NCBI GenBank assembly: GCA_944390965.1
Contig: CALXRW010000005.1
Coordinates: 16 to 64,015 of the forward strand
Direction: 5' to 3'
Source of the DNA: an uncultured Clostridia bacterium
Lineage (GTDB): Bacteria > Bacillota > Clostridia > TANB77 > CAG-508
Length of the DNA stretch: 64,000 bases
The first letter of the stretch is position 1, and each line of letters starts with the position of its first letter. Shown here piece after piece: positions 18 to 63,812 of the stretch. The translations under genes were made by a program, and so were the position numbers. The notes below the pieces were generated by a model. It did no database searches. It was not told the origin of the DNA and saw only the letters and a program-made list of their open reading frames with translations.

Positions 18-62
18 GGGTAATTTCTTCGTAGAACGGGCGATTAAAATCGCCCCTACACA
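18..62 (-). repeat. REP-like element copy R1 (GC hairpin GGGCGATTAAAATCGCCC followed by CTACA on + strand)
   Basis: Hairpin core 38-60. Same unit recurs at least 9 times in the window. On the minus strand it reads GTAG + hairpin. Confidence 0.85.
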
Positions 63-176
63 TTAATTATTCATTATTCACTATTCATTCTTCATTATTC
101 ATTAATTAAATTTACAACATTATCTATTTTTTTAATGAATAGTGAATAATTAATAATGAATAATTAATAATTTTTT
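61..176. repeat. AT-rich imperfect palindrome built from ATTCATTATTCA-type motifs
   Basis: Left arm ATTATTCACTATTCATT (about 74-90) is complementary to AATGAATAGTGAATAAT (134-150). A near-identical module occurs at 51863-51944. Confidence 0.75.
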
Positions 177-220
177 GGGTGATTTCTTTGTAGTAGGGGC
201 GATTAAAATCGCCCCTACAC
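177..220 (-). repeat. REP-like element copy R2
   Basis: GGGGCGATTAAAATCGCCCCTACA at 196-219. Direct repeat of 1-75, including the flanks AATTAATAATTTTTT..GGGT.ATTTCTT. Confidence 0.85.
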
Positions 221-235
221 GCTAATTATTCATTA

Positions 236-271
236 ACAAAAAAATCTCACCCTTGCGAGTGAGATTTTTTG
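236..271. terminator. Bidirectional intrinsic terminator
   Basis: Stem ATCTCAC (244-250) / GTGAGAT (259-265), flanked by an A-run upstream and a T-run downstream. Lies just past the stop of the 275..487 ORF. Confidence 0.7.
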
Positions 272-274
272 TTT

Positions 275-487
275 TCACTTCAGATTGAACACAATCCGAA
301 TTTTGTTCTTTGGCAAAAGAAACAGCATGGCTTCTTCTTTAAATTCTCTATCCAATTCAAAGAAGAGTCTTCTTTCCATGTCTTCTTCGGAGATACCAAA
401 AGATGATAGGTCTACTACTACTTCCTTCTTTCTCCTTGCCATTGCCCACATCATTCTATGGGCAACAAACATCTTCATCCTTTCCAC
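275..487 (-). CDS. Hypothetical small protein (about 70 aa)
   Basis: ORF preceded by GGAGAGGAG and followed by a terminator. No recognisable motif. Confidence 0.45.
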   Translation of the reverse strand: MERMKMFVAHRMMWAMARRKKEVVVDLSSFGISEEDMERRLFFELDREFKEEAMLFLLPKNKIRIVFNLK

Positions 488-587
488 AAGAATTCTCCTC
501 TCCTTTAAGTCGGTCCTGCAGTTAGGAATACATATAGCATATTGCTAATATAGTTATTATAGCAAAAATGCAATTTTATTTCAATAC

Positions 588-4631: not shown

Positions 4632-5084
4632 TTAATCAATTAAATTTAATAACATATTTTTGAAAATATTTGCTCTAATTTTATCTTTTATATCTGTATT
4701 TATCATTAGTACATTATCACTTGTTGCTACTTTTAATAGTTTTGCTTCTTTTTCGGAAATCATATTATAAGATAAAAAGTTATTAATAAAAATATCTACT
4801 TCATTTGCAGATATGCTATCTCCTAAAGTAGTAATAATATGCATAAAGTAGTTACTTTTGGTAATATTAATTTTTTTAATCTTAATACTCCCTCCTCCAC
4901 CTCTTTTACTTTCTACATAATATCCTTGTTTTGGTGTAAATCTTGTAGAAATGACATAATTAATTTGAGATGGTACACAGCCAAAGTGTTCTGCTAAGTC
5001 ATTTCTTTGAATTTCTATAAGATTGGCATCTTGTTCATCGAATAGCTCTTTGATAAAATCTTCTATTATATCTGCAATTCTCAT
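4632..5084 (-). CDS. ctsR: Class III stress-gene repressor CtsR
   Basis: First gene of the mcsA-mcsB-clpC operon. Has the VPSQINYVISTRF helix and the glycine loop KRGGGGSI typical of CtsR. Its own operator lies upstream. Confidence 0.9.
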   Translation of the reverse strand: MRIADIIEDFIKELFDEQDANLIEIQRNDLAEHFGCVPSQINYVISTRFTPKQGYYVESKRGGGGSIKIKKINITKSNYFMHIITTLGDSISANEVDIFINNFLSYNMISEKEAKLLKVATSDNVLMINTDIKDKIRANIFKNMLLNLID

Positions 5085-5191: not shown

Positions 5192-5398
5192 TTATTTTTC
5201 TTTATTTTTAAGATTTATCTCATTATTTCTAGCTTTATTATTGTTTTTGGTTATTTTTTGCATTTTTTCTGCTTGTTCTTTTTGTTTTTCAATTGGCAAC
5301 CAATGATGATAAGAACAAACAAATTCACCATAAAGAGTAGCATCTTCCCCTATTTCTTCTTTGAATTTATCTTTCGTAATCTCTTTTTCTTTGCTCAT
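5192..5398 (-). CDS. Hypothetical small charged protein (68 aa)
   Basis: ORF with GAGGTG 6 nt upstream of ATG 5398. No known motif. Confidence 0.5.
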   Translation of the reverse strand: MSKEKEITKDKFKEEIGEDATLYGEFVCSYHHWLPIEKQKEQAEKMQKITKNNNKARNNEINLKNKEK

Positions 5399-5438: not shown

Positions 5439-7178
5439 TTATTCTTCTAAATATTGTTTTACAACTTCCCATACACTTTCGTCTTCTCTGTCTTTTGCCC
5501 AGAATGCAACTCCACCTAATTCGTATTCTCTTGCTAAGTTTAATTTTTCTTGAATAGATTGATTATCTTCTATCCACATTTTATAAGTTGTACTTCCATT
5601 ATTATACTCTATATAATTTTGTTTAGTTTCTTCATTCCATACTCTTTCTACTGAGCTTGGAAATCTTCTGCTAATATAGCTTTCTGTGTCTGTCATATCT
5701 ATAACATCACTATCTAAGTCCTCTCCTTCTGTTTCGTACCAAACTCTTGTATAGAATGGAATTCCTAATATCATCTTTTCTTTTGGAACGCCTTCTTGTT
5801 TGCCTACAAATTTATCTAATGCTAATTTTATCCAATCATATCCTGCTACACTTCCTGCTACTGTACTACTTTCTCCATGCTGATCATATCCCATAAAAAT
5901 CATGTAATCTACATTTTTAGCCAAATTATATCTATCAAAACATTGTGACCAAGTTTCTCCTCCATCTGGTGCTGTTACATCAACAGATAGTGTCATTCCA
6001 TAGTCTTTTAATCTTGGTGCTAATTCTATAATAAATCTTGTAAATAAGTCTTTGTCTTCCATATACATATTTTCAAAGTCAATATTTATACCATCGACTC
6101 CATATTTTACTGCTAAATCCACAATTCCTTTAATTGTTTTTTCTCTTAATTTAAAGTCATTCATAATTTCACTAGTTGTTTCAATCATAGATTCATTAGA
6201 AAACAAAGCCCAAACTTCATATCCTTGTTCTTTTGCCCATTCTACATAGGCTTGACCTTCTTCTCCTGCTTTGTCTATGATATCTCCTTGTCCTAATCTT
6301 TTTAAAGCAAAAAATGTTGGTGATACCACATTTATTCCTTCAATTGTTGTTCCACTTCTGTCTGGTGCTGTTACATATTCGGAGTAATAATCCCATACCA
6401 AGCTTACTTTTTGCAATTTTTCTTCCTCTGGCATTTCTTCTCTTACAGAAATTATGTTAGCAAGCTTGTTTTCTTTAACATAACCGATTTTTCCTCTTTC
6501 TGTCCTAATTTCTGCCCATCCATCTTCTGAAGTAGATATTAATACCACTTTTTCTCCTTGTTCTACTTTATCTACTGTTCTAGAAAAGAATTTCATCCTA
6601 GATTTTACACTTAAGTTTTTAGAAGCATCTGCTTTTTGTTGAGCTCTATCTAAAGAGTCTAGCAATAAAATATCTGTTTCTTCTATATAGGTTGCTTCCA
6701 TATGATAAACATCTTGTAATTCATAAATTGGCAAATAATAAGTATCATCCTTTTGAATAACCGGAGCTGCAGTTCTCATAATACTATCATTTACTTTTAT
6801 TTCATTTTCCCCTACTACCATAACCCCAATTTTGTTATTATCTGTTGTAATAATTTGGTTGTATTGTTCGTCATAATAAATAAATGCATCATAAAAGTTC
6901 TCTAAATCCTCCATTGACAAATAAATATTTCCTTCTTCGTCAATATATACTTCTTTTTTTAGGTGTGCTGTGATATTATTGTTGTTAATAATTACATTAG
7001 TTCTGTCTGTAATTTCTTCATTTTTATAATTTGGTGAAATTACCAAAATAAATGCAACAATAGCAAGTGCAATTAGCACTACAATTCCTTTTGTAATGTA
7101 ATTTCCTCTACTTTTTCTTTCTTTTCCATGTTTATTTTTTACAGGTTTTTCTTTGTTTATTTTGTTATTTTCTTCCAT
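5439..7178 (-). CDS. Membrane-anchored glycoside hydrolase family 18 protein (YaaH/YdhD-like peptidoglycan/chitin hydrolase)
   Basis: N-terminal TM segment, an SH3-like segment (GWAEIRTERGKIGYV), and the GH18 catalytic motif DGINIDFE with TIM-barrel-like repeats. Confidence 0.8.
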   Translation of the reverse strand: MEENNKINKEKPVKNKHGKERKSRGNYITKGIVVLIALAIVAFILVISPNYKNEEITDRTNVIINNNNITAHLKKEVYIDEEGNIYLSMEDLENFYDAFIYYDEQYNQIITTDNNKIGVMVVGENEIKVNDSIMRTAAPVIQKDDTYYLPIYELQDVYHMEATYIEETDILLLDSLDRAQQKADASKNLSVKSRMKFFSRTVDKVEQGEKVVLISTSEDGWAEIRTERGKIGYVKENKLANIISVREEMPEEEKLQKVSLVWDYYSEYVTAPDRSGTTIEGINVVSPTFFALKRLGQGDIIDKAGEEGQAYVEWAKEQGYEVWALFSNESMIETTSEIMNDFKLREKTIKGIVDLAVKYGVDGINIDFENMYMEDKDLFTRFIIELAPRLKDYGMTLSVDVTAPDGGETWSQCFDRYNLAKNVDYMIFMGYDQHGESSTVAGSVAGYDWIKLALDKFVGKQEGVPKEKMILGIPFYTRVWYETEGEDLDSDVIDMTDTESYISRRFPSSVERVWNEETKQNYIEYNNGSTTYKMWIEDNQSIQEKLNLAREYELGGVAFWAKDREDESVWEVVKQYLEE

Positions 7179-9239: not shown

Positions 9240-9698
9240 TTATTTTTTTATGTGGAAAATATTTTTTATTTTATTTATAATTCTTGCAAATATTGATTTT
9301 TTATATGGTATCATTGCAGTTTCATTTGCTATTTGTTCTTCTACATTTTTTGTTTCTTGTTTTTGCTTTTTGAAAATATTATCTGGGTTATATCTTTCTC
9401 TAAGTTCTAATTGATATTTTTCTTCATTGTTTTTTAAAATGTTATTTATTTCCGCAACTTCATTTTCATCTTCACACCAGTAATTTAAATATAATAATAC
9501 AATGATAGCCATGGTTTCTTTTCTTATATTTTGTTCATTTAAAGGCAAATCTTCTGTATATTGTGGATTATAATTGATTGCTCTTTTTTCCTTTAACATA
9601 TTCATTAATGTAGCTGGCAATTTTTCTGTATATTCAGTTCCTAATAAATTTAATATCTGATATACTTCTGAATAAATTTCTTTGGTTTCTACTTTCAT
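9240..9698 (-). CDS. Hypothetical protein (152 aa)
   Basis: Translationally coupled (ATGA overlap at 9695-9698) to the upstream 471-aa ORF. No catalytic motif recognised. Confidence 0.6.
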   Translation of the reverse strand: MKVETKEIYSEVYQILNLLGTEYTEKLPATLMNMLKEKRAINYNPQYTEDLPLNEQNIRKETMAIIVLLYLNYWCEDENEVAEINNILKNNEEKYQLELRERYNPDNIFKKQKQETKNVEEQIANETAMIPYKKSIFARIINKIKNIFHIKK

Positions 9699-11110
9699 AT
9701 CTCATTTCCTTTTTCATTTTCATTTTTATTTTGTTCTTCCAGTCGTCCTTCTTCTAATGTTCTTCTTGCATCATGTAAATCTGATGATTTTATTTCTTTA
9801 CATAAACTCGATAATAACCTTCTCTTACTTTTAGGTAATTCAGATTTTATAGGATTATTAGGTATATTGGTTAAAATTCTTCTCTGGCTTTTTCGTGATT
9901 TTTCTTCTTCATTTACATTGTGTGATGGTTCATTGGTATTTGTTCGAATTCTCCTTGAGCTCTTTATTGTTGGTTCAGCAAATTCTTTTGTCTTAGGTAT
10001 TCTAATTTTAGGTCTACTTGTTAGTTCTATTTTTTCATTTGGTGTCACACTATCGTCAATGTTTTCCAAAATTTTTCTTGTTGTTGTATTTTCTCTTCTT
10101 ATTGGTTGTTCTTTATAACGTTTAGCTAATGTTATTGCATTATCAACCATATATGATTTCCAGCCTTCTTGTTCCATTTGTTCTTTCATTCTATGTAATT
10201 GTTCCATATTCCTACTTGAAATTAACTCATTAAAATTTTTAGATATATCATCCATATTTGCAGAAAGTTCCTTAAAGAGTTTTTCTTTTTCTTTTGGCGG
10301 TAAATCTGAATAATGTTGTTCATTTTTTATAAAACTCTGGCTTCCATCTTGTTCTTCACAATAATATCCTAAAATAAATTGTGGTGGTATTTTCCTTAAT
10401 TTTGAGCAAATCCTATCAAAAATACAATGTTCTTCATATTGTTGTCCAGCTGTTCTTCTATTTTTCTCTGGAAATCCTAGAAAAATCTTTTCTCCTTCTT
10501 CATTTTGTATATATGAAGGAACAGCAATGATAACATTTGCTTTTGTTCCTTCTCCAAATTTATATCCAACAATTTCTTGTCTTATTTTTTCTGAATCTTC
10601 ATTTACTCCTAGAGAAATTGCTGTGCTTAGAATTGTTTTACTATTATTATTTAAGTCTAATCCTTGGCTATTTATACTTTCTGCTATACTTTGTTTTTCT
10701 TCTCTATTACCTTTATCTATTCCATGAATTCCTATGCCATATTCCCCTTGTTCAAGTTTACCAAGAGTATCTTCTAAATTTGATTGTTTCGTTTTCGATT
10801 TCTGCTCTTTATCTAGCTCTTGATAAATAATTTCAATGTCTTTATTGCTTTGAAATCTATGTAATGTCTCAATTCCAATTTCAATTAAATGTGCTTTTTC
10901 TGTCATAATCGATCTGACATTTGTTAGTCCTAAAGCATATGCAGCTGAATGGTCTATATAAAATTTTCCATCTCTTCTATATACTCGTAGTTTTCTCTTT
11001 GTTCTCATTATTAGTTTAGTTGGTTCTCCTAATTGCCCTTCTTGATTTCTAGCTTTTAAAAGTAATTTCATCTTTTCTCTTGTTTTTTCATTACTTTTGT
11101 ATTGTAGCAT
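9695..11110 (-). CDS. Hypothetical protein (471 aa) with a basic low-complexity C-terminus
   Basis: Long ORF with coding-like composition. The central region (GIGIHGIDKGN ... VIIAVPSYIQ) is unrecognised and the tail is Lys/Arg/Glu-rich. Confidence 0.6.
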   Translation of the reverse strand: MLQYKSNEKTREKMKLLLKARNQEGQLGEPTKLIMRTKRKLRVYRRDGKFYIDHSAAYALGLTNVRSIMTEKAHLIEIGIETLHRFQSNKDIEIIYQELDKEQKSKTKQSNLEDTLGKLEQGEYGIGIHGIDKGNREEKQSIAESINSQGLDLNNNSKTILSTAISLGVNEDSEKIRQEIVGYKFGEGTKANVIIAVPSYIQNEEGEKIFLGFPEKNRRTAGQQYEEHCIFDRICSKLRKIPPQFILGYYCEEQDGSQSFIKNEQHYSDLPPKEKEKLFKELSANMDDISKNFNELISSRNMEQLHRMKEQMEQEGWKSYMVDNAITLAKRYKEQPIRRENTTTRKILENIDDSVTPNEKIELTSRPKIRIPKTKEFAEPTIKSSRRIRTNTNEPSHNVNEEEKSRKSQRRILTNIPNNPIKSELPKSKRRLLSSLCKEIKSSDLHDARRTLEEGRLEEQNKNENEKGNEI

Positions 11111-11560: not shown

Positions 11561-11768
11561 ATGTAATCCATCCAATGCAATATTATTAGATTAAGTGAAA
11601 TACTTTTTTATTTTAATTTCAACCATATATACCTATATTTTGAAGCAAAAGCTCGAACAGCCTGCTGCTTACGGATTACTCCTTGAACCTTGAGAGTTTT
11701 GCGAATAAAATATAGGTATATATGGTTGATTTTCTTAATTTAAATAATATTGCACGGATGGATTACAT
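11561..11768. repeat. Palindromic MITE-like element, copy A (family 3)
   Basis: Termini ATGTAATCCATCCAATGCAATATTATT / AATAATATTGCACGGATGGATTACAT, inner stem AACCATATATACCTATAT / ATATAGGTATATATGGTT, and a roughly 78-nt core shared with 21685-21796. Confidence 0.8.
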
Positions 11769-18644: not shown

Positions 18645-18685
18645 GTAATTTCTTTGAAGAACGTGCGATTAAAATCGCCCCTACA
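18645..18685 (-). repeat. REP-like element copy R3 (stem partly degenerate)
   Basis: GTAATTTCTTTGAAGAACGTGCGATTAAAATCGCCCCTACA, ending 19 nt upstream of the rluD start. Confidence 0.8.
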
Positions 18686-19485: not shown

Positions 19486-19985
19486 TTTGTTTTTCCTCCA
19501 TCTTTATTTTTTATATAATATACAGCTGTTACTATTGCTAAACTTACCCAACCTATTACAATTAAAATATCTGCTATATTAAATACTGGGAAAGAAATAA
19601 TTGGTGAAAAATCTATAAAATCTAATACAAATCCTCTTGCTATCCTGTCAATTAAGTTACTAATTCCCCCTGCTAATATCATGGTCAATATAATTTGTGT
19701 TTTTCTGTCGATTCGATCTTTTTGTATGATCATAAACCTTATGATAATTCCTAATATGATAATATTTACTAGAACAAACATCATGGTACTATTTTGCCCT
19801 ATTCCAAATGCCCCACCTCTATTTTCTACATAGGTAAAATTTAATACATTAGGAATGATGTTTTTAATTTCTTTTCCTATATTTTCTACTATATAAAATT
19901 TGGATATTTGATCTATAACAATAAGCAATATTACTAATATTACAATTACATATGGTTTAAAATTCTTTTTTCCTTCGTCCTTCAT
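19482..19985 (-). CDS. lspA: Lipoprotein signal peptidase II
   Basis: Motifs VENRGGAFG and NLIDRI..G.V.DFIDF ... FNIAD. Four TM helices. Confidence 0.9.
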   Translation of the reverse strand: MKDEGKKNFKPYVIVILVILLIVIDQISKFYIVENIGKEIKNIIPNVLNFTYVENRGGAFGIGQNSTMMFVLVNIIILGIIIRFMIIQKDRIDRKTQIILTMILAGGISNLIDRIARGFVLDFIDFSPIISFPVFNIADILIVIGWVSLAIVTAVYYIKNKDGGKTN

Positions 19986-20002
19986 TTTTTCTTTTCCTTT
20001 CT

Positions 20003-21631
20003 TTAATCATTTGGTACATTTCTCTGATATACACAGAAATACTTATCTGAATATAATTCTTCATATCCTTCATCTCTGCTGATAAACATGTTTAATTTTG
20101 ATTTTTTAAATAAAATAACATGAGTAATTTCATATTCTTTAAATTTATCTTCATAATATACCCCAAGATTGGATATGTTCATAAAATCTGAAAAAATGTC
20201 TTTTTTCCCATTAAATTCTGGTGAGTATAAATCTGCCCTTGAATCAATAAATACTGGAATATCATTTAATAGTAAATAACTGCCATAATTGTATTCATTA
20301 AATAATCTCATAGTTTTTAAATCTATATTATTTTTTATATATTCTGTAGCTTGCACAGGATAATTGCTTTCACTTACGAATTTATCATCTAGTTTTGGCT
20401 TTATAATATTTATACTCCACACAATGGTAATAGCAAATACAATAATAGTTCCTGTATATTGTGTTACTATTTTTTCTACTTTTTCTAAAAATCCATCTGC
20501 ATATTTTTTTAAGAATGCATAAATGAGTCTGCCTAAAACAGGAACGCATAGTAAGTATACAAGTGACATCTGCCTTCTGCTACTAAATGCCATTAGGATA
20601 AGTCCACCTAATAGGAATCCATCCTTTAAACGAATTTTAGTATCTGTAAACATTAAAATAGCAATATATACAATTAGGAGTAGTAAAAATTCTTTTGTTC
20701 CCATTAAAGTTAATGGTAAATGTTCATTAATATTCTGTGTAGTATTTCCTTCCATTGTTTTGATTAGATAAGTATATGGCGTATCTCCCAATGGTGTTAA
20801 TAGTCCTGTTAATGTACAAATAAGCATAAGTATAATTAGCCATTTAGTTTGTTCATTTTCTACTACTTTAATTTTATAACTTTTTCTTCTTGATTTTTCT
20901 ACTCTTTTATCAAAATTGTCTATACTATCTTGTAACTTTTCTATTTTTTCTATATATTTCTTCTTTTTTTCTTCATCAGTTACTTTTTCTAATTTTCTTT
21001 TTAGTATTTTTATTTGCTTTTTACTAAAAAACGGAGATGCTTTGCTTAAGTTTGCTACTATATATTCTCCTATATAAGGTAAATATAATACAAAGTAAAA
21101 TGGCCATACAGCAACATGAAGATTAGCAATTAAAATTGAAATTACGATAAGATAAATAGGATACCTTTTCTTTTTTGTGTCTAAAAATTGTTCAATAAAG
21201 TAAATGGTTAATACAAACAGAATAAAAGTGACTAATTGGGCTCTTGCTGTAATAAATGATTTGGCTAAGAATATAGCAGCCATTGTTAATACAAATGCAA
21301 TTACTCTACTTTGAATTAATTTTTTACTGGTGAAATAAAGAACTAAGCCCAAAATACATGTTAAAATAATAGTTGCCACATAAATACCTGCGTAGCCAAA
21401 CATATGATAGACTATGTATGTAAGCACATCATATAACCAATGGGGATACGTATATGGCAAGTCTTCATGCCAAGAAAATGGATCCATATGGGTAATTCCA
21501 TTTTCCATAATATATTCTCCTATTTTTATACTATAATAGGTATCATTTTGAAAAGTTACAGGAGTAATGGCAATACAAAAAATAATAATACAAATTACAG
21601 CAATAAAACTAAATTTTGTTCCTTGTTTCAT
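20003..21631 (-). CDS. Large polytopic membrane protein of unknown function (possible GT-C-type glycosyltransferase)
   Basis: At least 12 predicted TM helices, a lysine-rich cytoplasmic loop and a C-terminal soluble domain. No specific motif recognised. Confidence 0.6.
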   Translation of the reverse strand: MKQGTKFSFIAVICIIIFCIAITPVTFQNDTYYSIKIGEYIMENGITHMDPFSWHEDLPYTYPHWLYDVLTYIVYHMFGYAGIYVATIILTCILGLVLYFTSKKLIQSRVIAFVLTMAAIFLAKSFITARAQLVTFILFVLTIYFIEQFLDTKKKRYPIYLIVISILIANLHVAVWPFYFVLYLPYIGEYIVANLSKASPFFSKKQIKILKRKLEKVTDEEKKKKYIEKIEKLQDSIDNFDKRVEKSRRKSYKIKVVENEQTKWLIILMLICTLTGLLTPLGDTPYTYLIKTMEGNTTQNINEHLPLTLMGTKEFLLLLIVYIAILMFTDTKIRLKDGFLLGGLILMAFSSRRQMSLVYLLCVPVLGRLIYAFLKKYADGFLEKVEKIVTQYTGTIIVFAITIVWSINIIKPKLDDKFVSESNYPVQATEYIKNNIDLKTMRLFNEYNYGSYLLLNDIPVFIDSRADLYSPEFNGKKDIFSDFMNISNLGVYYEDKFKEYEITHVILFKKSKLNMFISRDEGYEELYSDKYFCVYQRNVPND

Positions 21632-21684
21632 GGCTTGTCTCCTCTTATAAACTATGTCTCTTTTGAAAATAAAAACTCTTATAT

Positions 21685-21796
21685 ATCCATCCCATGAACT
21701 TATATTTTGAAATAAAAGCTCGAACAGCCTTCTGCTTCCGGATTACCCCTTGAACCTTGAGAGTTTTATTGAAAAATATAAGTTCATGGGATGGAT
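21685..21796. repeat. Palindromic MITE-like element, copy B (family 3)
   Basis: Termini ATCCATCCCATGAACTTATAT / ATATAAGTTCATGGGATGGAT enclose a core about 90% identical to 11636-11712. Confidence 0.8.
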
Positions 21797-21854
21797 AAAA
21801 TCTTTTTTCTTTCCATTTTATATTAAAATTTCTTATTCTTTCCTATTATATATA

Positions 21855-21892
21855 AAAAATCCAAAAAAGTATAGCTTTTTTGGATTTTTTTA
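21855..21892. terminator. Bidirectional terminator downstream of the OB-fold gene
   Basis: Stem AATCCAAAAAAG / CTTTTTTGGATT with flanking A- and T-runs. Confidence 0.7.
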
Positions 21893-21908
21893 TTGAATTT
21901 CTATTTTA

Positions 21909-22631
21909 TTACATTGCTTCTTGATTTTCTGTTTGCTCTTCTTTTACGGCATTTCCCTCTTCATTGATTACTTCTAAGCTTATAATAGAAACTTCATAAG
22001 CAACTCTTTGTTCAGATGTACCATCTTCAAATTTCTTTTCGTATATTCTAGATTGTACCCTTCCTGTTATTTTAATCCTTGTTCCTACTTCTACGTTTTG
22101 GCAAAATCTTGCATTTCTTCCCCATGCAATACAAGGAATATAATCAGATTTGCTATATGATCTATTTACTGCTAATAAAATATCTGATATTTCTCTTCCA
22201 AATGGTGTTTGTCTGTAGATAGGTTTTTTGCAAATATAACCTTGTAATACAACTTCGTTTGAATTTGCCTCTTTCTTAACAACACCGTCTTCGATAATTT
22301 CTTCTCTTGGTGTAATCTCTTTTGCAAATACAGTAAGAATTAATTTGCTTTTTTCGTTTTCATACCCATTGTATGATCTAAATTGTCCTTCTACTAAAAT
22401 TTTGTTTCCAATACTTAAATCTGTTTCCATAATTAATCTTTCAGATACTGTAATAGGAATGATATCTGAAATATCACTTAATCTTGGAACATCTAGATTA
22501 AATATGTAGAATCTCTCTCCATAGATTTCATGACTAAATTTTTTTTCACTTGCTACTTTTCCTATTAATACCAAGTGATTGTTTTCTGTATAGTTTGTAA
22601 TCAATTTCATTTCCTCCTTATATTTATCCAT
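21909..22631 (-). CDS. Double OB-fold protein, SSB-like
   Basis: Two tandem OB-like segments (LVLIGKVASEKKFSHEIYGERFYIF... and VVLQGYICKKPIYRQTPFGREISDILLAV...) and an acidic C-terminal tail. Confidence 0.45.
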   Translation of the reverse strand: MDKYKEEMKLITNYTENNHLVLIGKVASEKKFSHEIYGERFYIFNLDVPRLSDISDIIPITVSERLIMETDLSIGNKILVEGQFRSYNGYENEKSKLILTVFAKEITPREEIIEDGVVKKEANSNEVVLQGYICKKPIYRQTPFGREISDILLAVNRSYSKSDYIPCIAWGRNARFCQNVEVGTRIKITGRVQSRIYEKKFEDGTSEQRVAYEVSIISLEVINEEGNAVKEEQTENQEAM

Positions 22632-22741
22632 TGTGTGTTTGTTATTTTGTAATTGGTATTTAATGGTATGGTTACCATCCTATGCTATTATACTACTTTT
22701 TTTTTAGTTTGTCTACATAAAATGTTAATTTTTTTCATTTT

Positions 22742-39135: not shown

Positions 39136-39207
39136 AAGTAATTTCTTCGAAGAACGGGCGATTAAAATTACCCCTACATTTTTTCATAGATTACTTTACA
39201 CTATCTT
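39136..39207 (-). repeat. REP-like element copy R5 (long form, stem degenerate)
   Basis: AAGTAATTTCTTCGAAGAACGGGCGATTAAAATTACCCCTACATTTTTTCATAGATTACTTTACACTATCTTTT. Confidence 0.85.
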
Positions 39208-40837: not shown

Positions 40838-40953
40838 GCTTTCACCTCTTTATAGTTTCTATTATGCCATATTTGCTTTAATTTGTCAATTTTTACAATA
40901 TTCCTATTTTGGAATTTCTCCACAAAAAAAGAACAAGTTTCCCTGTTCTTTTC

Positions 40954-41069
40954 TTATTGCATAGGAAAAATCGTCAGATTTTTCCGGAGCAACAAGGTTA
41001 AGTTACCTATGTTTTCGTGCGATTGCGAAGCAATCTGTACATGTGGCGAAGCCACTTTTCTTATTATAC
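40954..41069 (+). repeat. Family-2 intergenic repeat, copy C1
   Basis: Hairpins GGAAAAATC/GATTTTTCC, GATTGC-GAA-GCAATC and GTGGC-GAA-GCCAC, then TTTTC. About 98% identical to the reverse complement of 63935-64000. Confidence 0.8.
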
Positions 41070-48540: not shown

Positions 48541-48766
48541 AATATTTACTTTCTCTTCACAAGGAATTCACATAAGCACGATATAGTAATAATTGAAAAT
48601 ATCCCCTTTATTTTTAAAAAGAAAGGCCCCATCAAATAAACAGGAGTCTTTCTTTTTGGTCTTAGAAAAGCTTTATATATTTCAGCGTTTTTCTTGACTA
48701 AACCTTAAAAATAGAGTATGATAGATTCGTGTTAGATTATGAAAATATGAAAGGATGTAATAAATT

Positions 48767-51058
48767 ATGGTATGTTCTGTATGTAATAAAAATACAGCTG
48801 TCATTTTTATAAATAAAATAGAAAATGGTAAACAAGTTACAGAAGGACTTTGTTATAATTGTGCCAAGGAAAGAGGATTGAACCCACTGGAAATATTGGC
48901 AAAGCAAGCCAATCTTTCTGAAGAGAATTTGCAAGATATGGCAAAACAGTTCGAAGACATCTTCCAAGATGTTACAAATAATGTTGATATGGAAAATTTA
49001 GAAAATAATCCCAATGGTGAGCAAAACATTCCTATCGGAGCTATTATAACAAATATGTTTTCTTCTGATAAAAATAAATCTGATAAGTCAGAAAAATCTA
49101 ATGATCCTAATAAGAAAAAAACAAAAGTAGAAAAAAAGCCAAAGGAAGAAAAGAAAAGGTTTATTGACACATATGGAACGAATTTAACACAGAAAGCTAG
49201 AAATCACGAACTAGATACTGTTGTTGGAAGAGACAAAGAAATTCAAAGAGTCATACAAATTTTAAATAGACGTTCTAAAAATAATCCTTGCTTAATTGGT
49301 GAACCTGGGGTTGGGAAAACAGCTATTGCGCAAGGATTGGCCATTAAAATTGCTAACCAGCAAGTACCTCCTAAGTTGTTAAATAAGGAAGTATATTTAT
49401 TAGATATGACTTCTGTTGTTGCTGGGACACAGTTTAGAGGCCAATTTGAAGGTCGTATGAAAGCCATTATAGATGAGTGCAGGAATAGTAAAAATATTAT
49501 TTTAGTTATTGATGAAATTCACAATATTATTGGTGCTGGTGATGCTGAAAATGCAATGAATGCTGCTAATATTTTAAAGCCATCTTTAGCCAATGGCGAA
49601 GTACAAGTAATTGGTACAACTACACTAAAAGAATATCGCAAACATATTGAAAAAGATTCTGCTTTGGAAAGAAGATTTCAGCCAGTTTTGGTGGAAGAGC
49701 CAACTGTTGATGATACGATTTCTATTTTAAGAGGAATTAAAAAATATTATGAAGAATATCATAAAGTTCGTATTTCTGATGATGTTATTACACAAACAGT
49801 AAAAATGTCTGAGAGATATATTCATGACAGATTTTTACCAGATAAAGCAATTGACATTTTAGATGAAGCATGTTCTAAAATTAATTTAAATAATAAGGAA
49901 TTATATGAATTAGAACTTCTACGAAATGAGCTTAAAAAAATACAAGATGAAAAAGAGGAAGCCGTTTCTTCTGATTCTATAGAAGATTATCAAAAAGCTG
50001 CAGATTTAAAGACTAAAGAATGTAATTTACTAGAAAAAATAGATGAATTAAATCAAAAATTTCAATATACTAATTTAACCATACAAGATATTGCTAGAGT
50101 AATTGAAAGTTGGACTAAAATTCCTGTTACTAAAGTAACGGAAGAGGAAACTCATAAGTTATTAACTTTAGAGGAAAATTTACACCATCGAATTATTGGA
50201 CAAGATGAAGCTGTAAAAGCTGTAAGTAGAGCCATTCGTAGAAATCGTGCTGGATTACAAACATCCAAAAGACCACCTTCTTTTATTTTCGTTGGTCCTA
50301 CCGGTGTTGGTAAAACAGAACTTGCTAAATCTTTGGCCATAGAAATGTTTGGAAGTGAAGATTCCATTATTCGTATTGATATGTCCGAGTATATGGAAAG
50401 TCATTCTACCTCTAAATTAATAGGTTCGCCTCCTGGTTATGTAGGATATGATGATAGTGGATGGCTTACAGATAAAGTAAAAAGGAAACCATATTCTATT
50501 ATCTTATTAGATGAAATTGAAAAAGCTCATCCAGATGTATTTAACTTGCTTCTTCAAATTTTAGATGATGGAAGATTGACAGACAGCCAAGGAAATACTG
50601 TTAATTTTGAAAATACAATTATCATTATGACATCTAACGCTGGTTCTAATTTAAATAATAATTCTATTGGATTTGGAAAACAGACTCTAGATAAGAATAA
50701 AATTGAAGAAAATTTAAAAAGTATTTTTAGACCAGAATTTTTAAACAGAGTAGATGAAATTGTAGTATTTGACAGTCTTACTAAAGAACAATTATTACAA
50801 ATTGTAGATTTATTATTAGAAAATACAAAATCTGCATTAAGTAATAAAAATATTGATTTTTCAATATCAGAACAAGCAAAACATTATTTATTAGATAAAG
50901 GAACAGACTTAAAATATGGTGCAAGACCTTTAAGAAGAGCTATTCAACGTTATGTAGAAGATGAGCTAGCTGAAATGATTTTAAGATGTGAATTGTTAGA
51001 TGGTGACAAAATTTTTGTAGATGTTGCAGATGATAAATTAATATTTCAAAGAAATTAA
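48767..51058 (+). CDS. clpE: ClpE-type AAA+ Clp ATPase (N-terminal zinc ribbon, no Clp_N repeats)
   Basis: CSVC...CYNC zinc ribbon, two Walker A sites ([16 protein letters not shown]) and a middle UVR-like coil. Confidence 0.88.
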   Translation: MVCSVCNKNTAVIFINKIENGKQVTEGLCYNCAKERGLNPLEILAKQANLSEENLQDMAKQFEDIFQDVTNNVDMENLENNPNGEQNIPIGAIITNMFSSDKNKSDKSEKSNDPNKKKTKVEKKPKEEKKRFIDTYGTNLTQKARNHELDTVVGRDKEIQRVIQILNRRSKNNPCLIGEPGVGKTAIAQGLAIKIANQQVPPKLLNKEVYLLDMTSVVAGTQFRGQFEGRMKAIIDECRNSKNIILVIDEIHNIIGAGDAENAMNAANILKPSLANGEVQVIGTTTLKEYRKHIEKDSALERRFQPVLVEEPTVDDTISILRGIKKYYEEYHKVRISDDVITQTVKMSERYIHDRFLPDKAIDILDEACSKINLNNKELYELELLRNELKKIQDEKEEAVSSDSIEDYQKAADLKTKECNLLEKIDELNQKFQYTNLTIQDIARVIESWTKIPVTKVTEEETHKLLTLEENLHHRIIGQDEAVKAVSRAIRRNRAGLQTSKRPPSFIFVGPTGVGKTELAKSLAIEMFGSEDSIIRIDMSEYMESHSTSKLIGSPPGYVGYDDSGWLTDKVKRKPYSIILLDEIEKAHPDVFNLLLQILDDGRLTDSQGNTVNFENTIIIMTSNAGSNLNNNSIGFGKQTLDKNKIEENLKSIFRPEFLNRVDEIVVFDSLTKEQLLQIVDLLLENTKSALSNKNIDFSISEQAKHYLLDKGTDLKYGARPLRRAIQRYVEDELAEMILRCELLDGDKIFVDVADDKLIFQRN

Positions 51059-51081
51059 AGCACAAATATATGGAGGAATTT

Positions 51082-51657
51082 ATGAAACATGTTCCGAATA
51101 TTTTAACAATTGTTAGATTTATTTTAATCCCTTTCATTGTTTATTTTGCAATGAAGGAGCAGTACATTATAACAACCATTATTTTAATAATATCTGGTAT
51201 TACAGATATTCTAGATGGTATTATTGCAAGAAAATTTAATTTTATTACTGATTTTGGAAAACTGATGGATCCATTAGCAGATAAAGCAACACAAGTGGCA
51301 ACTTTAGTTGTTCTTGTGTTGCAAAATATCATTCCTTTCTGGATTTTAGCAGTAGTAATTATTAAAGAATTTATTATGGTTGCTGGCGCCTCTTTCCTCT
51401 ATGGAAAAGAGACCGTTGTATTTAGTAAGTGGTATGGAAAGCTTTCAACCGTATTATTTTATATTGCCATTTTTTCATCACTTATTATAAAATATTTTAA
51501 TATTACCTTTAATTTTGCAGATTATATTTATTATCTAGCAGTTGCAGTTACTATTTTCTCTTTAATTATGTACTTTAAAGCCTTTTGGGTAAAGGGATAT
51601 ATTAAAGAAGCAAATACCAACCATCAAGAAGAGGAAAATAAAAAACATCTCAACTGA
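51082..51657 (+). CDS. pgsA: CDP-diacylglycerol--glycerol-3-phosphate 3-phosphatidyltransferase
   Basis: CDP-alcohol phosphatidyltransferase motif DGIIARKFNFITDFGKLMDPLADK. ATG 51082 follows GGAGG. Confidence 0.88.
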   Translation: MKHVPNILTIVRFILIPFIVYFAMKEQYIITTIILIISGITDILDGIIARKFNFITDFGKLMDPLADKATQVATLVVLVLQNIIPFWILAVVIIKEFIMVAGASFLYGKETVVFSKWYGKLSTVLFYIAIFSSLIIKYFNITFNFADYIYYLAVAVTIFSLIMYFKAFWVKGYIKEANTNHQEEENKKHLN

Positions 51658-51699
51658 GATGCTTTTTTTAGGGATTGTCAAAGACTATCTTATACAATT

Positions 51700-51944
51700 T
51701 TAAACAGTTCCTTTGAAGAACGGGCGATTAAAATCGCCCCTACATCTAAAATTATTCATTATTCACTATTCATTTTTCATTATTCATTAATAGATATAAG
51801 AATTATCTTTCTCGAGCGTTTTCTTTGAAGCTGGGTCGCCGAGGGCGGCGACCCCTACATGCAAATTATTCATTAATTCAATTTACAACATCACTGATTA
51901 TATTTAATGAATAGTGAATAATTTATAATGAATGATGAATAATT
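51700..51944 (-). repeat. Composite repeat block: two REP-like hairpins (R6 canonical 51722-51744, R7 stem-swapped 51833-51859) interleaved with ATTCATT-type palindrome modules
   Basis: Collinear with 1-235, except that R7 and its flank are inserted inside the AT-rich module, after ATTCATTAAT. Confidence 0.85.
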
Positions 51945-54983: not shown

Positions 54984-55011
54984 TTTGTTGATTCCTCACT
55001 TTTTTTGCTTT

Positions 55012-55085
55012 AAGTAATTTCTGAGAAGAACGGGCGATTAAAATCGCCCCTACATTTTTCACAAATTACCTTACACTATCTTTTA
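55012..55085 (-). repeat. REP-like element copy R8 (long form)
   Basis: AAGTAATTTCTGAGAAGAACGGGCGATTAAAATCGCCCCTACATTTTTCACAAATTACCTTACACTATCTTTT. Its left end lies 28 nt upstream of the comEC start. Confidence 0.85.
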
Positions 55086-58394: not shown

Positions 58395-58583
58395 TTTTTT
58401 GTTTCACCTCCACACATTTTATTTAAAGAATAAATCTAATTTCTCTAAACCTTTTTAATATTTACTATATTAAATTAAGGTCTAGCAAAAAGCATATGAG
58501 ATTTGTTGACGCAAAAAATTGTGAAACAATTTTTCTATGCATCTATTTTTCAAATTACATGAAATGCAGTTTTCTATAACTTG

Positions 58584-58692
58584 AAAAACTCTGTACATAC
58601 CACCAAGGCATATACAGAGTTTGCATTTACTCTTTCTTAACACCTCGGTAGGACTTACTTAAATATTTGCCTACTGTCTTTGGCTATTTAGT
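58584..58692 (-). promoter_or_regulatory. Probable L10 (rplJL) leader with attenuator
   Basis: Minus strand has AAGACAGTAGG...CCTACCGAGGTG, then the hairpin AAACTCTGTATAT/ATGTACAGAGTTT + TTTTT. This resembles Firmicute L10 leaders that act by attenuation. Confidence 0.45.
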
Positions 58693-58695
58693 TTT

Positions 58696-58790
58696 TTATT
58701 GTATAGGAAATTTCCAGAACAATAAGATTAAGTTACCTATGTTTTCACTCGATTGTGTTGCAATCTGTACATGCGATGAAGTCACTTTTT
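58696..58790 (+). repeat. Family-2 intergenic repeat, copy C2 (diverged)
   Basis: TTATTGTATAGGAAATTTCC...GATTAAGTTACCTATGTTTTCACTCGATTGTGTTGCAATCTGTACATGCGATGAAGTCACTTTTT aligns with C1 at about 80% identity. Confidence 0.7.
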
Positions 58791-59470: not shown

Positions 59471-59605
59471 ATTTTTCCTCCTTTTGGTAATAACGGATTT
59501 CTCCTCCCATTTTTTGCTAATAGCCTTTATTTATGTTAATAATTATAACATACTAAAATTGTTTTTACTTTTTATGCGATGGATAACGAAGTAATACGCC
59601 GCTAA

Positions 59606-61001: not shown

Positions 61002-61020
61002 TTCATTTCCTCCTAAAAGG

Positions 61021-61295: not shown

Positions 61296-61787
61296 CTATT
61301 TCATTGATTTTGTTTCAGTTTTTTTGTTCCATATTTTATTATATAATTTTTGCAATAAAATAGTTAGTATAATTCCTGTTAAAATACCAAAGGAATCTAA
61401 AAAAATATCTGTTATTTGTGCACTTCTTCCAGGAATAAAATATTGATGCCATTCATCTGTTATAGCATAAACTGTTCCTACTATTTGGCTAAGTATAAAA
61501 GGCCTTTTCACTAAAAAAGTTGTCATAAAGGAATATATTAAAATTCCCCCTATTATATAGATGACATAATGGGCAAGTTTCCTAATGAAGGGCTCTATTT
61601 TCTGAATGAGTTCCTCTCTTTGATTTTCTGTTAAATGGTTTGGTATGATATTCTCTAAAACTATTCTTACTGTTCCCTGACTTGTACCACTTGACTGCTC
61701 TCCACCTTGGTGGGAAAACATAAAAATTGTACTAACCCAAATGATTAATAAAATTCCTAATATGACTCTATTCATGTTTCTCCTCAT
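61296..61787 (-). CDS. VanZ-family membrane protein
   Basis: Motifs KLAHYVIY and DEWHQYFIPGRS. Four TM helices. Confidence 0.8.
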   Translation of the reverse strand: MRRNMNRVILGILLIIWVSTIFMFSHQGGEQSSGTSQGTVRIVLENIIPNHLTENQREELIQKIEPFIRKLAHYVIYIIGGILIYSFMTTFLVKRPFILSQIVGTVYAITDEWHQYFIPGRSAQITDIFLDSFGILTGIILTILLQKLYNKIWNKKTETKSMK

Positions 61788-62347
61788 CTTTTCTTTTTTA
61801 CAGAAAAACCAAATTTTCCAACTGGCTTTCCTAAAGTATAATAGTTTCCATTTGCATAAGTAATTAAATTACATTTATTAATATCAAATTTCCCTGTTTC
61901 ATCTATATATTTTTCATCTGCATCAATAGACAACACTTCTGCCATAAACATATGATGGCTCCCTAGTTCTTTAATATCTATTACTTTACATTCAATGGAA
62001 ACAGGACTTTCTTTTATTAAAGGAGCTTTTACAAATTGTGCTTTTTCTTTTGTTAAATGCATTTGTTTGAATTTATCTATTTTTGCTCCAGTTTTTACAC
62101 CACACCAATCAGTGGCAAATGCTAATTCTTTCGTAGTAAGATTAATAACAAACTCACCTTGTTCTTTTATCATTTTATATGAATATCTTTCTGGTCTAAC
62201 AGAAATATAAACTGTTGCAGGGTTTGTATTTAATATTCCTGTCCATGCAACAGTAATAATATTTGATTTTTTTATGGTTCCACATGTTACCATAACAACA
62301 GGGAGTGGATAAATAAAAGTTCCCGGTTTCCATATCACTTTTCCCAT
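61784..62347 (-). CDS. Flavin reductase-like (FMN-binding split-barrel) protein
   Basis: Pattern PLPVVMVTCG ... NIITVAW ... FVINL. Confidence 0.8.
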   Translation of the reverse strand: MGKVIWKPGTFIYPLPVVMVTCGTIKKSNIITVAWTGILNTNPATVYISVRPERYSYKMIKEQGEFVINLTTKELAFATDWCGVKTGAKIDKFKQMHLTKEKAQFVKAPLIKESPVSIECKVIDIKELGSHHMFMAEVLSIDADEKYIDETGKFDINKCNLITYANGNYYTLGKPVGKFGFSVKKKR

Positions 62348-62349
62348 TT

Positions 62350-63597
62350 TTATCTTTCACCTTTTTCTTGTTTTTGATCTTTTTTTACAAAAAACTCATC
62401 TAATTCTTCTGGTACAACACATTCATATTGATTATTTTCTTGATAAATGCTTCCTATGCAATATAAATCTTCTGCTATTCTTCTTTCCTTTAAGAAGTTC
62501 TCATCTTGGTCAATTTTTCTTATAAATTCACAATAATGAATATCATCTAACTGTTCTTCTGTTACATCATCCATAACAAATAATTTTTCTCTTCTACCAT
62601 TTTGTCTTTTCCCTATTGGTATTAACTTATAAATTCCAAAGTTTTCTTCTCCTTTTGATACAGTCCCAACTTTTATAATTCTTCTTGAAAAATCTATATT
62701 TGTTCCTATTCTCCCCTTTTCAAAATCCTTTTTTGTTCCTCTTAATTCTCTTTCTTCTCTTTTAAAAGAATCTTCTACAAAAGGTTGGTATGAGATTTCA
62801 AAAGTTTTTTTGTTCAATTCTCCAATATATCCACTTCTCTTAGCTAGAGATTCTATTAAGTGCTTTCTACTAAACAAAGTAGAAGAATATAGTCTTAGTT
62901 TTCCTATGTTCTCTCTTAAAGATTCAAAATTAATGTTTTCATGCGTATATACCATATAATCAAAATTAGCTCCATTCCATTGTTCTGAAATACGATAGCG
63001 ATATAGTGAATATGGACAAATTTTACTGCTAAAAGTTGAATATGGTCTTTGTCCTTGCATTTTTTCAATTTTCACTTTATCTCCTGATGCTCTTTGAAAA
63101 TATATGCTCTGCTCTCTTTCTTTTTCCTCTTTTAATTTTCTTTTTATTTCTTCATTTCTTTTTTCCTCTTCATCTTGCAATTTTTTTCTTTTTTCATCTT
63201 CGTATTTTCTCTTTTCGAACTCTTCTCTTTCTTTTTCTTCATGTCTAATTTGTTCTATAAAATTTTTATAATCATCTAAAAATTTTCTTTCATTTCTTTT
63301 TCTCCAAAAACGTTCATTGATACTGACTATATCTTTTTGTACATCTTCTAAATTCTCTGTAGATTGCTCTAATGATACAGCCAAATCGGGATGAACTTTA
63401 AGTGACATTTTTCTAAACGCCTCATGTATTTTTTCTGGAGATATTTCTTCTTCTTTAATTCCTAGCATATCACAAATAGATATATATTTTCCACTTGTAA
63501 ACTTTTCTTTATATTCTTCACTTGTACTCATCATAAACTCATGAAGGCTAGGATATTTTTTTACCATATTGTATTTTAAAGGAATTCTAGTTCTCAT
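62350..63597 (-). CDS. J-domain (DnaJ-like HPD) protein with an unknown C-terminal domain
   Basis: ICDMLGIKEEEISPEKIHEAFRKMSLKVHPD is a J-domain helix II-HPD-loop pattern. It is followed by a Lys/Glu coiled coil and about 220 aa of unrecognised sequence. Confidence 0.6.
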   Translation of the reverse strand: MRTRIPLKYNMVKKYPSLHEFMMSTSEEYKEKFTSGKYISICDMLGIKEEEISPEKIHEAFRKMSLKVHPDLAVSLEQSTENLEDVQKDIVSINERFWRKRNERKFLDDYKNFIEQIRHEEKEREEFEKRKYEDEKRKKLQDEEEKRNEEIKRKLKEEKEREQSIYFQRASGDKVKIEKMQGQRPYSTFSSKICPYSLYRYRISEQWNGANFDYMVYTHENINFESLRENIGKLRLYSSTLFSRKHLIESLAKRSGYIGELNKKTFEISYQPFVEDSFKREERELRGTKKDFEKGRIGTNIDFSRRIIKVGTVSKGEENFGIYKLIPIGKRQNGRREKLFVMDDVTEEQLDDIHYCEFIRKIDQDENFLKERRIAEDLYCIGSIYQENNQYECVVPEELDEFFVKKDQKQEKGER

Positions 63598-63626
63598 TTT
63601 ACTACCTCTTCTTATAATATTGTTTT

Positions 63627-63697
63627 AAGTAATTTCTTCGAAGAACGGGCGATTAAAATCGCCCCTACATTTTTTCATAAATTACTTTACACTATCT
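63627..63697 (-). repeat. REP-like element copy R9 (long form)
   Basis: AAGTAATTTCTTCGAAGAACGGGCGATTAAAATCGCCCCTACATTTTTTCATAAATTACTTTACACTATCT. Its left end lies 29 nt upstream of the J-domain gene start. Confidence 0.85.
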
Positions 63698-63782
63698 ATA
63701 ATATTTGTCTCCTTTCCATTTTAATGGATTTGTTTTTATATATTCCAAAATTTTGAGATATTCTTTTTCGTTTCTAATAATG

Positions 63783-63812
63783 TTTTCATAGATTACTTTA
63801 CACTATCTTTTT
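63783..63812 (-). repeat. Solo right-flank fragment of the REP-like long form
   Basis: TTTTCATAGATTACTTTACACTATCTTTT without the GC hairpin. Confidence 0.7.

Follow-up and report, generated by a model that had tools for sequence, protein, structure and literature searches.

What are the GC-rich hairpins that recur between the genes of an AT-rich Clostridia genome, which enzyme spread them, and why do they all point the same way? These questions are raised by a 64-kb stretch of contig CALXRW010000005.1 from an uncultured Clostridia bacterium (hereafter the window), in which each hairpin is headed by the tetranucleotide GTAG. An initial annotation had likened them to repetitive extragenic palindromic (REP) sequences mobilised by REP-associated tyrosine transposases (RAYTs). 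We analysed the window together with about 13 kb of flanking DNA from conspecific contigs, and compared it with loci from other genomes and metagenomes (denoted by L numbers). [quoted passage not shown]

The hairpins share one architecture, in which T-GTAG heads a GC stem of 7 bp that is closed by a loop of 4 nt. A search with the pattern GGGCGATTNNAATCGCCCCTACA, allowing up to three mismatches, found the canonical core GGGCGATTAAAATCGCCCCTACA on the plus strand at 38, 197, 18663, 39156, 51722, 55032 and 63647, with at most two mismatches each, while none was expected from 100 dinucleotide-preserving shuffles. Variant GC hairpins with the same CTACA end were found at 26150 and 51833, and the stems are held by compensated changes (GGGCGAT/ATCGCCC, GGGTCGGCG/CGCCGACCC and GGGTCGCCG/CGGCGACCC). 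The exact head TGTAGGGG occurs nine times in the 64 kb, always on the minus strand, against a mean of 0.23 in shuffled sequences, and a generic detector of GTAG followed by a perfect GC stem of at least 6 bp found nothing in 20 shuffles. The copies at 18663 and 39156 have one or two stem mismatches each, and the latter no longer folds better than shuffled sequences. The copy at 196-219 is symmetric, with GTAG and CTAC on either side, so that its polarity is ambiguous. All nine copies are intergenic, and L111, which runs 9.6 kb past the window, adds another four. The coordinates, intergenic position and single orientation given in the initial annotation were thus confirmed, as were its distances to downstream start codons, which agree with our gene calls (rluD, 19 nt; comEC, 28 nt; a J-domain gene, 29 nt; a gltD-like gene, 43 nt). 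The three long copies that it described, with a 9-bp outer inverted repeat and a TTTACACTATCT tail, and the solo fragment at 63783-63812 are also real.

A REP is defined by GTAG abutting an imperfect GC-rich palindrome of 20-40 nt, and the nine units of TGTAGGGG plus stem-loop have this form. By this architecture, and by the association with RAYTs in relatives, we class the hairpin core as a REP in the strict sense and as a member of the GTAG-REP superfamily. The REP seldom stands alone in this genome; a conserved 3′ tail, (G)TTCTTCGAAGAAATTAC, is fused to it. Only singlets were found in the window, without any inverted REP doublets of the REPIN type. An Rfam 15 scan of the whole window at gathering scores gave no match to the repeats, and permissive scans (E up to 5) of two repeat regions around the copies gave nothing meaningful. 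The sole match was an ordinary ribosomal protein L10 leader (RF00557) at 58573-58701 on the minus strand (51 bits; gathering score 44). A reading as CRISPR, tRNA or tandem repeats was dropped, as there are no tRNAs and the copies are scattered instead of forming an array with unique spacers.

The link between the hairpins and a transposase was found in related genomes. We scanned one genome per species for exact copies of the 22-mer GTAGGGGCGATTTTAATCGCCC. The motif also occurs outside the window, which the initial annotation had named as a test of its reading: it was present in at least 108 genome blocks (stretches of at most 8 kb), mostly from metagenome-assembled genomes (MAGs) of uncultured gut, rumen and caecal Clostridia with 25-31% GC (copy numbers from our genome and metagenome scans are lower bounds). 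Many of these loci contain inverted doublets, in which a GTAG-hairpin and the spacer GTTCTTCGAAG are followed by a second hairpin ending in CTAC (L006, L007, L019, L026, L027, L039, L080 and L103). The first 11 nt of the tail in the window equal this spacer. Since the doublets carry GTTCTTCGAAG, the 'second small palindrome' of the initial annotation corresponds to the spacer of REPIN-like doublets in relatives.

When all open reading frames (ORFs) of the 22-mer loci were searched with E. coli RayT, 150-aa ORFs were found in L010 and L103, each between two inverted 22-mer copies about 525 nt apart. ORFs flanked by inverted 22-mers occur in at least six lineages (L010/L117, L103, L126-133, L134-136, L257 and L259-261). 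Three ORFs were scanned against family libraries (L103, L010 and L030, of which only the first two are REP-flanked), and all exceeded the gathering score of 23 for Pfam Y1_Tnp (PF01797; 28.5-47 bits). Those of L103 and L030 scored 63.5 bits with NCBIfam REP_Tyr_transpos (NF047646), which is below its equivalog cut-off of 80, against 16-17 bits with the IS200 model. The sole PDB match of the L103 protein was E. coli TnpA-REP (4ER8), in an alignment that includes Tyr115 and the histidines of the HUH motif. The proteins of the relatives are therefore RAYTs by their Y1_Tnp domain, by their HUH motif and catalytic tyrosine, and by being closer to RAYT than to IS200 TnpA.

The RAYT family comprised 2,628 proteins at E ≤1e-5, many of them on contigs shorter than 2 kb, as expected because the gene is bracketed by repeats. 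RAYT P0040 had identical neighbour genes in 23 of the 23 contigs read and hence occupies a fixed locus in single copy; the neighbours of P0063 were likewise constant in all places shown, and RAYT loci vary between lineages. The units on either side of the L259 RAYT consist of REP plus tail and match the window copies at 97% identity over 38 nt, which implies that the tail belongs to the RAYT-associated unit. Across lineages, the cassettes (L103 1297-1865, L134 9963-10485, L257 ~9985-10500, L117 9907-10474 and L259 3182-3782) lie in the neighbourhoods of clpC, clpB/CDP-OH-transferase, scpB, PBP5 and leuS. Three sites are syntenic with the window, at the clpC side (L103), at clpB/CDP-OH-transferase (L134; window 48765-51576) and at scpB/greA/ssb (L257; window 19551-22724). 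At these three positions the window has no RAYT, and it has REP clusters at two of them. Six RAYT clusters (P0040, P0033, P0063, P0009, P0099 and P0014) were followed to contigs, and none was tied to this species.

The 22-mer was also found in distant taxa, namely in Methylococcaceae (L008, L035, L036, L041, L060, L066 and L094), in a Clostridia MAG with 61% GC (L009, L022, L024 and L096) and in an Actinomycetota MAG (L056). These copies are typically REPIN-like inverted doublets, and about 0.07 chance matches were expected in the whole collection. Such a distribution would suggest that the RAYT/REP system was transferred horizontally, or else that a single RAYT recognition hairpin arose by convergence.

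The initial annotation had reported no Y1 transposase gene in the window, but the 3′ remnant of a RAYT is present on the minus strand, overlapping the solo fragment. The L103 RAYT matched the window by tblastn at 63799-63698 (64.7% identity over 34 residues, E = 2.9e-9), and E. coli RayT matched the same site (E = 0.01). The remnant comprises 36 C-terminal codons, with 63-69% identity to six RAYT C-termini, and keeps every residue that is invariant across the family and E. coli RayT. DNA homology extends from TATGAA through the stop codon. The region of the catalytic tyrosine is retained, and the HUH motif and all N-terminal sequence are lost, which makes it a pseudogene.

Both ends of this remnant involve the same type of mobile element. 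Upstream, its frame is joined at about codon 118 to a 25-nt solo IS6-type end, and the fusion point, TATGAAAA, is common to the MITE end and the RAYT gene. Downstream, its last codons hold the 9-bp duplication AATATTATA that flanks the MITE at 63622-63696. Without the MITE and one duplicate, the frame would read ...GDKYYKKR and then stop, ending 4 nt before the start of the J-domain gene. The remnant is not bracketed by inverted REPs. The truncated arrangement is also found in six conspecific contigs and in the sister lineage L263, whose J-domain protein is 86% identical. As the truncation is common to the window and L263, inactivation of the RAYT is old. For the same reason L263 was rejected as a representative of the intact ancestral state. 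A remnant of the RAYT 5′ untranslated region (UTR) and start codon upstream of the solo end is not claimed, because some shuffles scored higher than the best local alignment (z ~3). Upstream of the J-domain gene, ~495 nt that include repeats, stump and MITE are nearly identical in L263 (1-494) and the window (63598-64000); next to a J-domain protein with 86% identity, this may reflect recombination or fast evolution of the gene.

The REP/RAYT reading of the initial annotation therefore stands for the hairpin core, whose 22-mer brackets RAYTs in relatives, but not for the long copies, which are best read as MITEs of the IS6/IS26 type. Their left end GATAGTGTAAAGTAATCTATGAAAAAT is the 27-nt terminus of an IS of 1.7-1.86 kb (27 of 28 nt identical to its end A), whose opposite terminus is GGTAGTGTAAACTAAT. 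The right end is weaker (GTTTTAAGTAATTT vs GTGTAAAGTAATTT of the IS), and the right two-thirds of the MITE consist of the REP-plus-tail unit. With an IS6 end on the left and a REP unit on the right, the MITE is thus a chimera, in which the REP tail happens to resemble a terminal repeat. What the initial annotation called an outer inverted repeat, a TTTACACTATCT tail and a solo fragment read as ends of the IS6 type. The autonomous partner was found in metagenome contigs, intact in L179 and decayed in L181, L224, L238 and L215. The L179 protein (484-493 aa) has Cys-rich N-terminal motifs and scored 33.3 bits with DDE_Tnp_IS240 (gathering score 27); its best NCBIfam model was IS6, at 67.8 bits and hence below the cut-off of 125. 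In L181 the IS is flanked by an 8-bp target duplication, ATATGTCA. In L208 (1863-4188), end A likewise adjoins a region with genes for DnaC-like and relaxase-like proteins, and a module, GCACATTGAAAAGTTAAAAATATAC, recurs behind end A and some MITEs (L208, L142, L181, L150, L242 and L252).

Several lines of evidence indicate that the long form arrived by insertion. A metagenome scan with the MITE left end found at least 120 loci with at least 50 distinct left flanks. From the nlpC-comEC spacer of the relative L017 the whole long form of ~75 nt is missing, together with its 5′ module, which implies that this module is inserted DNA and not a native promoter. An intrinsic promoter in the 5′ module was therefore dropped, also because its -35 box would fall outside the element; a sigma-70 promoter scan of the window gave 71 sites vs 68 expected and is uninformative in AT-rich DNA. 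Several long copies lie between direct repeats of 8-9 nt. We tested 32 REP-bearing MITEs from the metagenome scan, the window and related loci for such duplications, and 15 of them had a flanking direct repeat of at least 7 nt (mode 8), compared to 3.2% in a null set of mismatched left/right pairs. Among the three window MITEs, a target duplication is clear only for that at 63622-63696. No such duplication arises in HUH-Y1 transposition of the IS200/IS605 type. The 8-bp duplications and the IS-derived end of the long copies are hence the signature of a DDE transposase rather than of an HUH enzyme.

Alternatively, all copies might be classical REPs or REPINs that an intact RAYT at another place in the genome currently mobilises in trans, the IS6-like end being incidental. 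The same 22-mer indeed lies beside RAYT genes in relatives, and REP plus tail also occurs without an IS6 end (at 18645-18685, in L111 at 9503-9558, in L020 and in L067). Moreover, REPs were gained and lost at orthologous spacers: the rplK-rplA spacer holds a REP in L017 and is empty in the window, two REPs upstream of a 470-aa gene in L061 are missing from the window, and a REP downstream of the same gene in the window is missing from L061. The copy at 18663 is shared with the sister genome L023 (88-92% DNA identity). We nevertheless regard mobilisation of every copy by RAYT as unlikely, because 8-bp direct repeats around the long form are 15-fold over the null, its left end shares 27 identical nt with a DDE insertion sequence, the sole RAYT sequence in the window is a stump, and the window contains no inverted doublets.

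Conversely, the hairpin might be native to the IS6-type MITE and all of it spread by an IS6-like transposase, with the RAYT uninvolved and the RAYT-flanking copies secondary. The number and wide distribution of the MITEs, with their many distinct flanks, and the death of the local RAYT would agree with this. We assign it very little probability, however, because the two inverted copies that bracket the RAYTs of the six or more lineages keep a constant distance of ~525 nt and have no IS6 end A close to them, because different GTAG hairpins occupy the same position in the MITE scaffold (L014, L148, L151 and L242), and because the Methylococcaceae, which are without this MITE, carry the 22-mer as REPIN-like doublets.

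A third setting of the REPs is an AT-rich palindromic unit of ~160 nt, in which REP plus tail lies between the inverted arms AATGAATAGTGAATAAT and ATTATTCACTATTCATT. Such units contain the copies at 38, 197 and 51722, and L111 and L121 have variant copies in them. The units downstream of clpC are arrayed in tandem and repeat every 159-160 nt. This array continues to the left of the window, and its number of units varies by strain, with at least 2 seen at the window edge, 3+1 in L121 and 4 or more in L122. The leftward extension in L121 and L122 shows the REP array followed by leucine-rich repeat and cation-efflux genes, without a RAYT.

We propose, then, that the REP would supply a single-stranded DNA hairpin recognised by an HUH-Y1 transposase, the RAYT. 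Three REP copies would have been captured in a 75-bp MITE spreading by DDE-type transposition with 8-bp duplications, and three further copies would be held in the AT-rich units, which form the length-variable array at the left edge. The RAYT beside the J-domain gene was presumably destroyed by fusion of a MITE-type end and by a second MITE in its last codons. With the local RAYT destroyed, at least part of the recent spread would be owed to the IS6-type vehicle and not to the RAYT.

The orientation of the copies can be explained by the genes around them. The uniform polarity in the window arises because most genes there share one orientation, 58 of the 68 called genes being on the minus strand. 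Beyond the window, L111 contains four inverted REPs (5059-5080, 5220-5243, 6118-6141 and 9530-9551). The first and the last of them are located immediately upstream of dut and rpe, respectively, which are inverted too. One inverted REP is located ~350 nt from an oppositely oriented MITE in the same divergent spacer. Hence, the common polarity reported in the initial annotation tracks gene direction, but it is not tied to a fixed strand, as the L111 copies flip with their downstream genes. Across the window and the low-GC loci, we counted 61 sense and 12 antisense cases of a single REP located between co-directional genes (p = 5e-9), and MITE copies were found 22 times in sense and never in antisense. 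As a proxy for replication direction, which is weak and crude, we used the majority gene strand per 8-kb locus. By this proxy, REPs in convergent or divergent spacers showed no bias (16:15), and antisense REPs mostly opposed the local majority strand. Given the weakness of the proxy, these results lean towards a cause linked to genes rather than to replication.

The two strands of a copy differ in what they would offer to RNA polymerase. On the gene-sense strand the stem is followed by GUUCUUCGAAG, and not by the immediate U-run that, together with a GC hairpin, defines a terminator. Only the opposite strand carries a terminator-like CUACAUUUUU(U), i.e. CUAC-A-UUUUU(U), with the U-run starting 5 nt past the stem. 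This run results from the A-rich 5′ flank of the sense copies, and antisense copies mostly lack it. The simplest reading is that antisense insertions in the short spacers of operons would be polar and would be removed by selection, so that copies between co-directional genes would survive almost only in sense.

This bias also invites the view that the element is primarily a selected cis-acting RNA module (a stabilising or processing stem-loop in the 5′ UTR, or an operon attenuator) rather than mobile DNA. In line with this, 19 of the 24 MITEs with a co-oriented downstream gene end 12-38 nt before its start codon, tail-type copies have 35-50 nt between hairpin and start codon, the element is in sense to its downstream gene even in a divergent spacer, and long copies fold better than shuffled sequences (z -3 to -4). 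In contrast, the downstream genes are unrelated (among them rluD, comEC, the J-domain gene, ftsH, rpiA-like and mini-RNase III) and the element is absent from orthologous spacers. Moreover, its target duplications and IS-derived end show arrival by insertion, Rfam has no match, and the spacers are so short that any insertion falls near a ribosome-binding site. We therefore consider an RNA module in place of a mobile element very unlikely. A bolder version of the preferred reading, which we find conceivable though doubtful, is that the REP lineage outlives its dead RAYT inside the MITE and has become fixed throughout a clade of gut Clostridia, nearly always in sense and 12-38 nt before dozens of unrelated start codons, as a portable 5′-UTR or inter-cistronic stem-loop module that would stabilise mRNA, direct its processing or insulate transcription units, and that would act as a terminator in reverse.

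Several observations weigh against our preferred reading of RAYT-derived REPs with an IS6-type vehicle. REPs and MITEs showed no presence-absence polymorphism in 11.6 kb compared among six conspecific strains, and their current activity is therefore unproven; two other repeat families do vary in the same 11.6 kb. Neither an intact RAYT nor an IS6-like transposase was found in the window. Two of its three MITEs have ambiguous duplications, in which the element end resembles the A-rich target. The MITE right end matches the IS terminal repeat in the AAGTAATTT core and flanking bases only (~12 of 14 nt), with the last 4 nt missing. Elements of the IS26 type move via cointegrates, so a simple insertion of 75 bp is not textbook behaviour. 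Finally, the terminator argument is drawn from sequence only, and the U-run does not begin until 5 nt after the stem.

Table 1. Location of the REP copies, IS6-type elements and RAYT remnant in the window
Feature	Position	Strand	Remarks
Right-hand end of tandem array, period ~159-160 nt	1-250	-	From spacing and matches to the AT module
REP copy	38-60	-	TGTAG + GGGCGAT/TTTA/ATCGCCC, then tail GTTCTACGAAGAAATTACCC; inside AT-rich palindromic unit
Symmetric REP copy, GTAG/CTAC on both sides	196-219	-	
REP + tail without IS6-type end, one stem mismatch	18645-18685	-	19 nt before rluD start
Variant REP, TGTAG + GGGTCGGCG/CCAT/CGCCGACCC, compensated 9-bp stem	26150-26176	-	
IS6-type MITE with decayed REP (39156-39178)	39132-39205	-	Ambiguous target duplication CTTAAAA; L221 is the same site
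REP (51722-51744) + tail + AT-rich arm	51698-51800	-	Convergent spacer after clpB-like and CDP-OH-transferase genes; syntenic position taken by a RAYT gene in L134
Variant REP, TGTAG + GGGTCGCCG/CCCT/CGGCGACCC, AT-rich arm	51833-51859	-	
IS6-type MITE with REP (55032-55054)	55008-55080	-	Between NlpC/P60 gene and comEC
Target-site duplication AATATTATA, right copy	63613-63621	-	
IS6-type MITE, 75 nt, with REP (63647-63669)	63622-63696	-	Inserted in last codons of RAYT remnant
RAYT (TnpA-REP-like) 3′ remnant, CKVIYENIIRNEKEYLKILEYIKTNPLKWKGDKYYR then stop	63692-63799	-	From tblastn, protein and DNA alignment, and translation
Target-site duplication AATATTATA, 9 bp, left copy	63697-63705	-	
Solo IS6-type end A, GATAGTGTAAAGTAATCTATGAAAA	63783-63807	-	Fused to RAYT remnant at TATGAAAA microhomology
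Ends of the IS6-like insertion sequence			GATAGTGTAAAGTAAT / GGTAGTGTAAACTAAT

Further repeats were observed in and around the window. A GC-rich stretch, CAGGGCGGCCTTGGCCGAACC, is found at 26195-26240 on the minus strand, just past the stop codon of the 470-aa gene and adjoining the variant REP at 26150; it may represent a terminator stem or a second REP that has degenerated. A second family of ~107-121 nt with three small GC hairpins occurs at 40948-41068, 58711-58789 and 63925-64000, and also in L112 (327-660) and L114 (6900-7018), and some strains carry it as tandem arrays upstream of the window end. This family shows an insertion polymorphism in L114 vs window 57478/57479, is bordered by short direct repeats such as TTTTCTTATT, and gave no Rfam match at gathering score. 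In the rplK-rplA spacer (window 59471-59605), a 122-nt unit that repeats the last ~45 nt of rplK is present in 0, 1, 2 or at least 3 copies, depending on the conspecific strain (L111 13993-14249, L115 4640-5018 and L116 4511-4978), and the same spacer of L017 contains related sequence. Lastly, an 85-nt intergenic repeat is found at 11616-11700 and 21683-21767 (85% identical), with a metagenome copy in L195 (2147-2238; 93%).

These results place a bona fide GTAG-REP/RAYT system in AT-rich gut Clostridia (Bacillota), where RAYT genes had already been noted and REP families had not been described. An HUH-type REP hairpin within a DDE-type IS6 MITE joins two unrelated mobile systems in one non-autonomous element, and offers a concrete case of how REP populations can outlive or switch their mobilising enzyme. 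Given the extreme sense bias immediately ahead of genes, the element is predicted to affect transcription or the fate of mRNA, in organisms that are not yet culturable. In practical terms the repeats matter for genome assembly, since metagenomic contigs of this species break at them.

The closest known systems are the GTAG-REPs and REPINs with RAYTs of E. coli, Pseudomonas and Stenotrophomonas (Nunvar 2010; Bertels & Rainey 2011; Di Nocera 2013), which have the same GTAG and GC-rich imperfect palindrome. Like the copies in the window and its flanks, they are extragenic and multicopy, with several hairpin classes per genome and compensated stems. Their single-copy HUH-Y1 gene with inverted flanks and their inverted doublets have counterparts in the relatives of our species. 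In contrast, the host is here a Clostridia bacterium with 29% GC, the REPs are singlets fused to a tail, the local RAYT is truncated, and part of the copies lie inside a DDE-type MITE. A survey of 2013 found GTAG repeats in Proteobacteria, Cyanobacteria, Chloroflexi and the PVC (Planctomycetes-Verrucomicrobia-Chlamydiae) group only, while a study of 2017 mentioned Group 1 RAYTs "also in the Clostridia", with only modest abundance of the flanking repeats.

For the vehicle, the comparators are the IS6/IS26 elements of Clostridia with N-terminal zinc-finger extensions (clades VII and VIII: ISCpe7, ISTet2 and ISHahy6), which measure 1.2-1.76 kb and have 8-bp duplications and a GGnnnTG end feature (PMC6807381), and the IS6-family MITEs of ISfinder (MITEBth2 and MITEHarch3). 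The full-length partner found here shares with them the DDE_Tnp_IS240 domain, the Cys-rich N-terminus, a length of 1.7-1.86 kb, ends of the GGnnnTG type and 8-bp duplications. It differs in that its protein stays below the NCBIfam cut-off, and the MITE measures only 75 bp and has a weak right end. A further difference is that the interior of the MITE is a REP hairpin from an unrelated HUH mobile system.

Physical coupling of IS and REP is also known from insertion sequences that target REPs, such as IS1397 and ISKpn1 in the loops of enterobacterial REPs and IS110-family elements in Pseudomonas REPs. There the IS inserts into the REP, whereas here the relation is reversed and the REP is carried inside a miniature IS derivative. 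The pneumococcal BOX, RUP and SPRITE repeats and the Correia elements of Neisseria are likewise short, non-coding and intergenic, and some of them are MITEs with target duplications and effects on neighbouring transcripts. They have no sequence in common with the present family, no GTAG head and no association with RAYTs. Our literature search found no paper describing the combination seen here. REP, RAYT, IS6-family IS and MITE are known kinds of element and their combination is new, its new features being the AT-rich gut Clostridia host, the REP inside an IS6-type MITE, the RAYT broken by the same MITE family and the near-absolute orientation bias.

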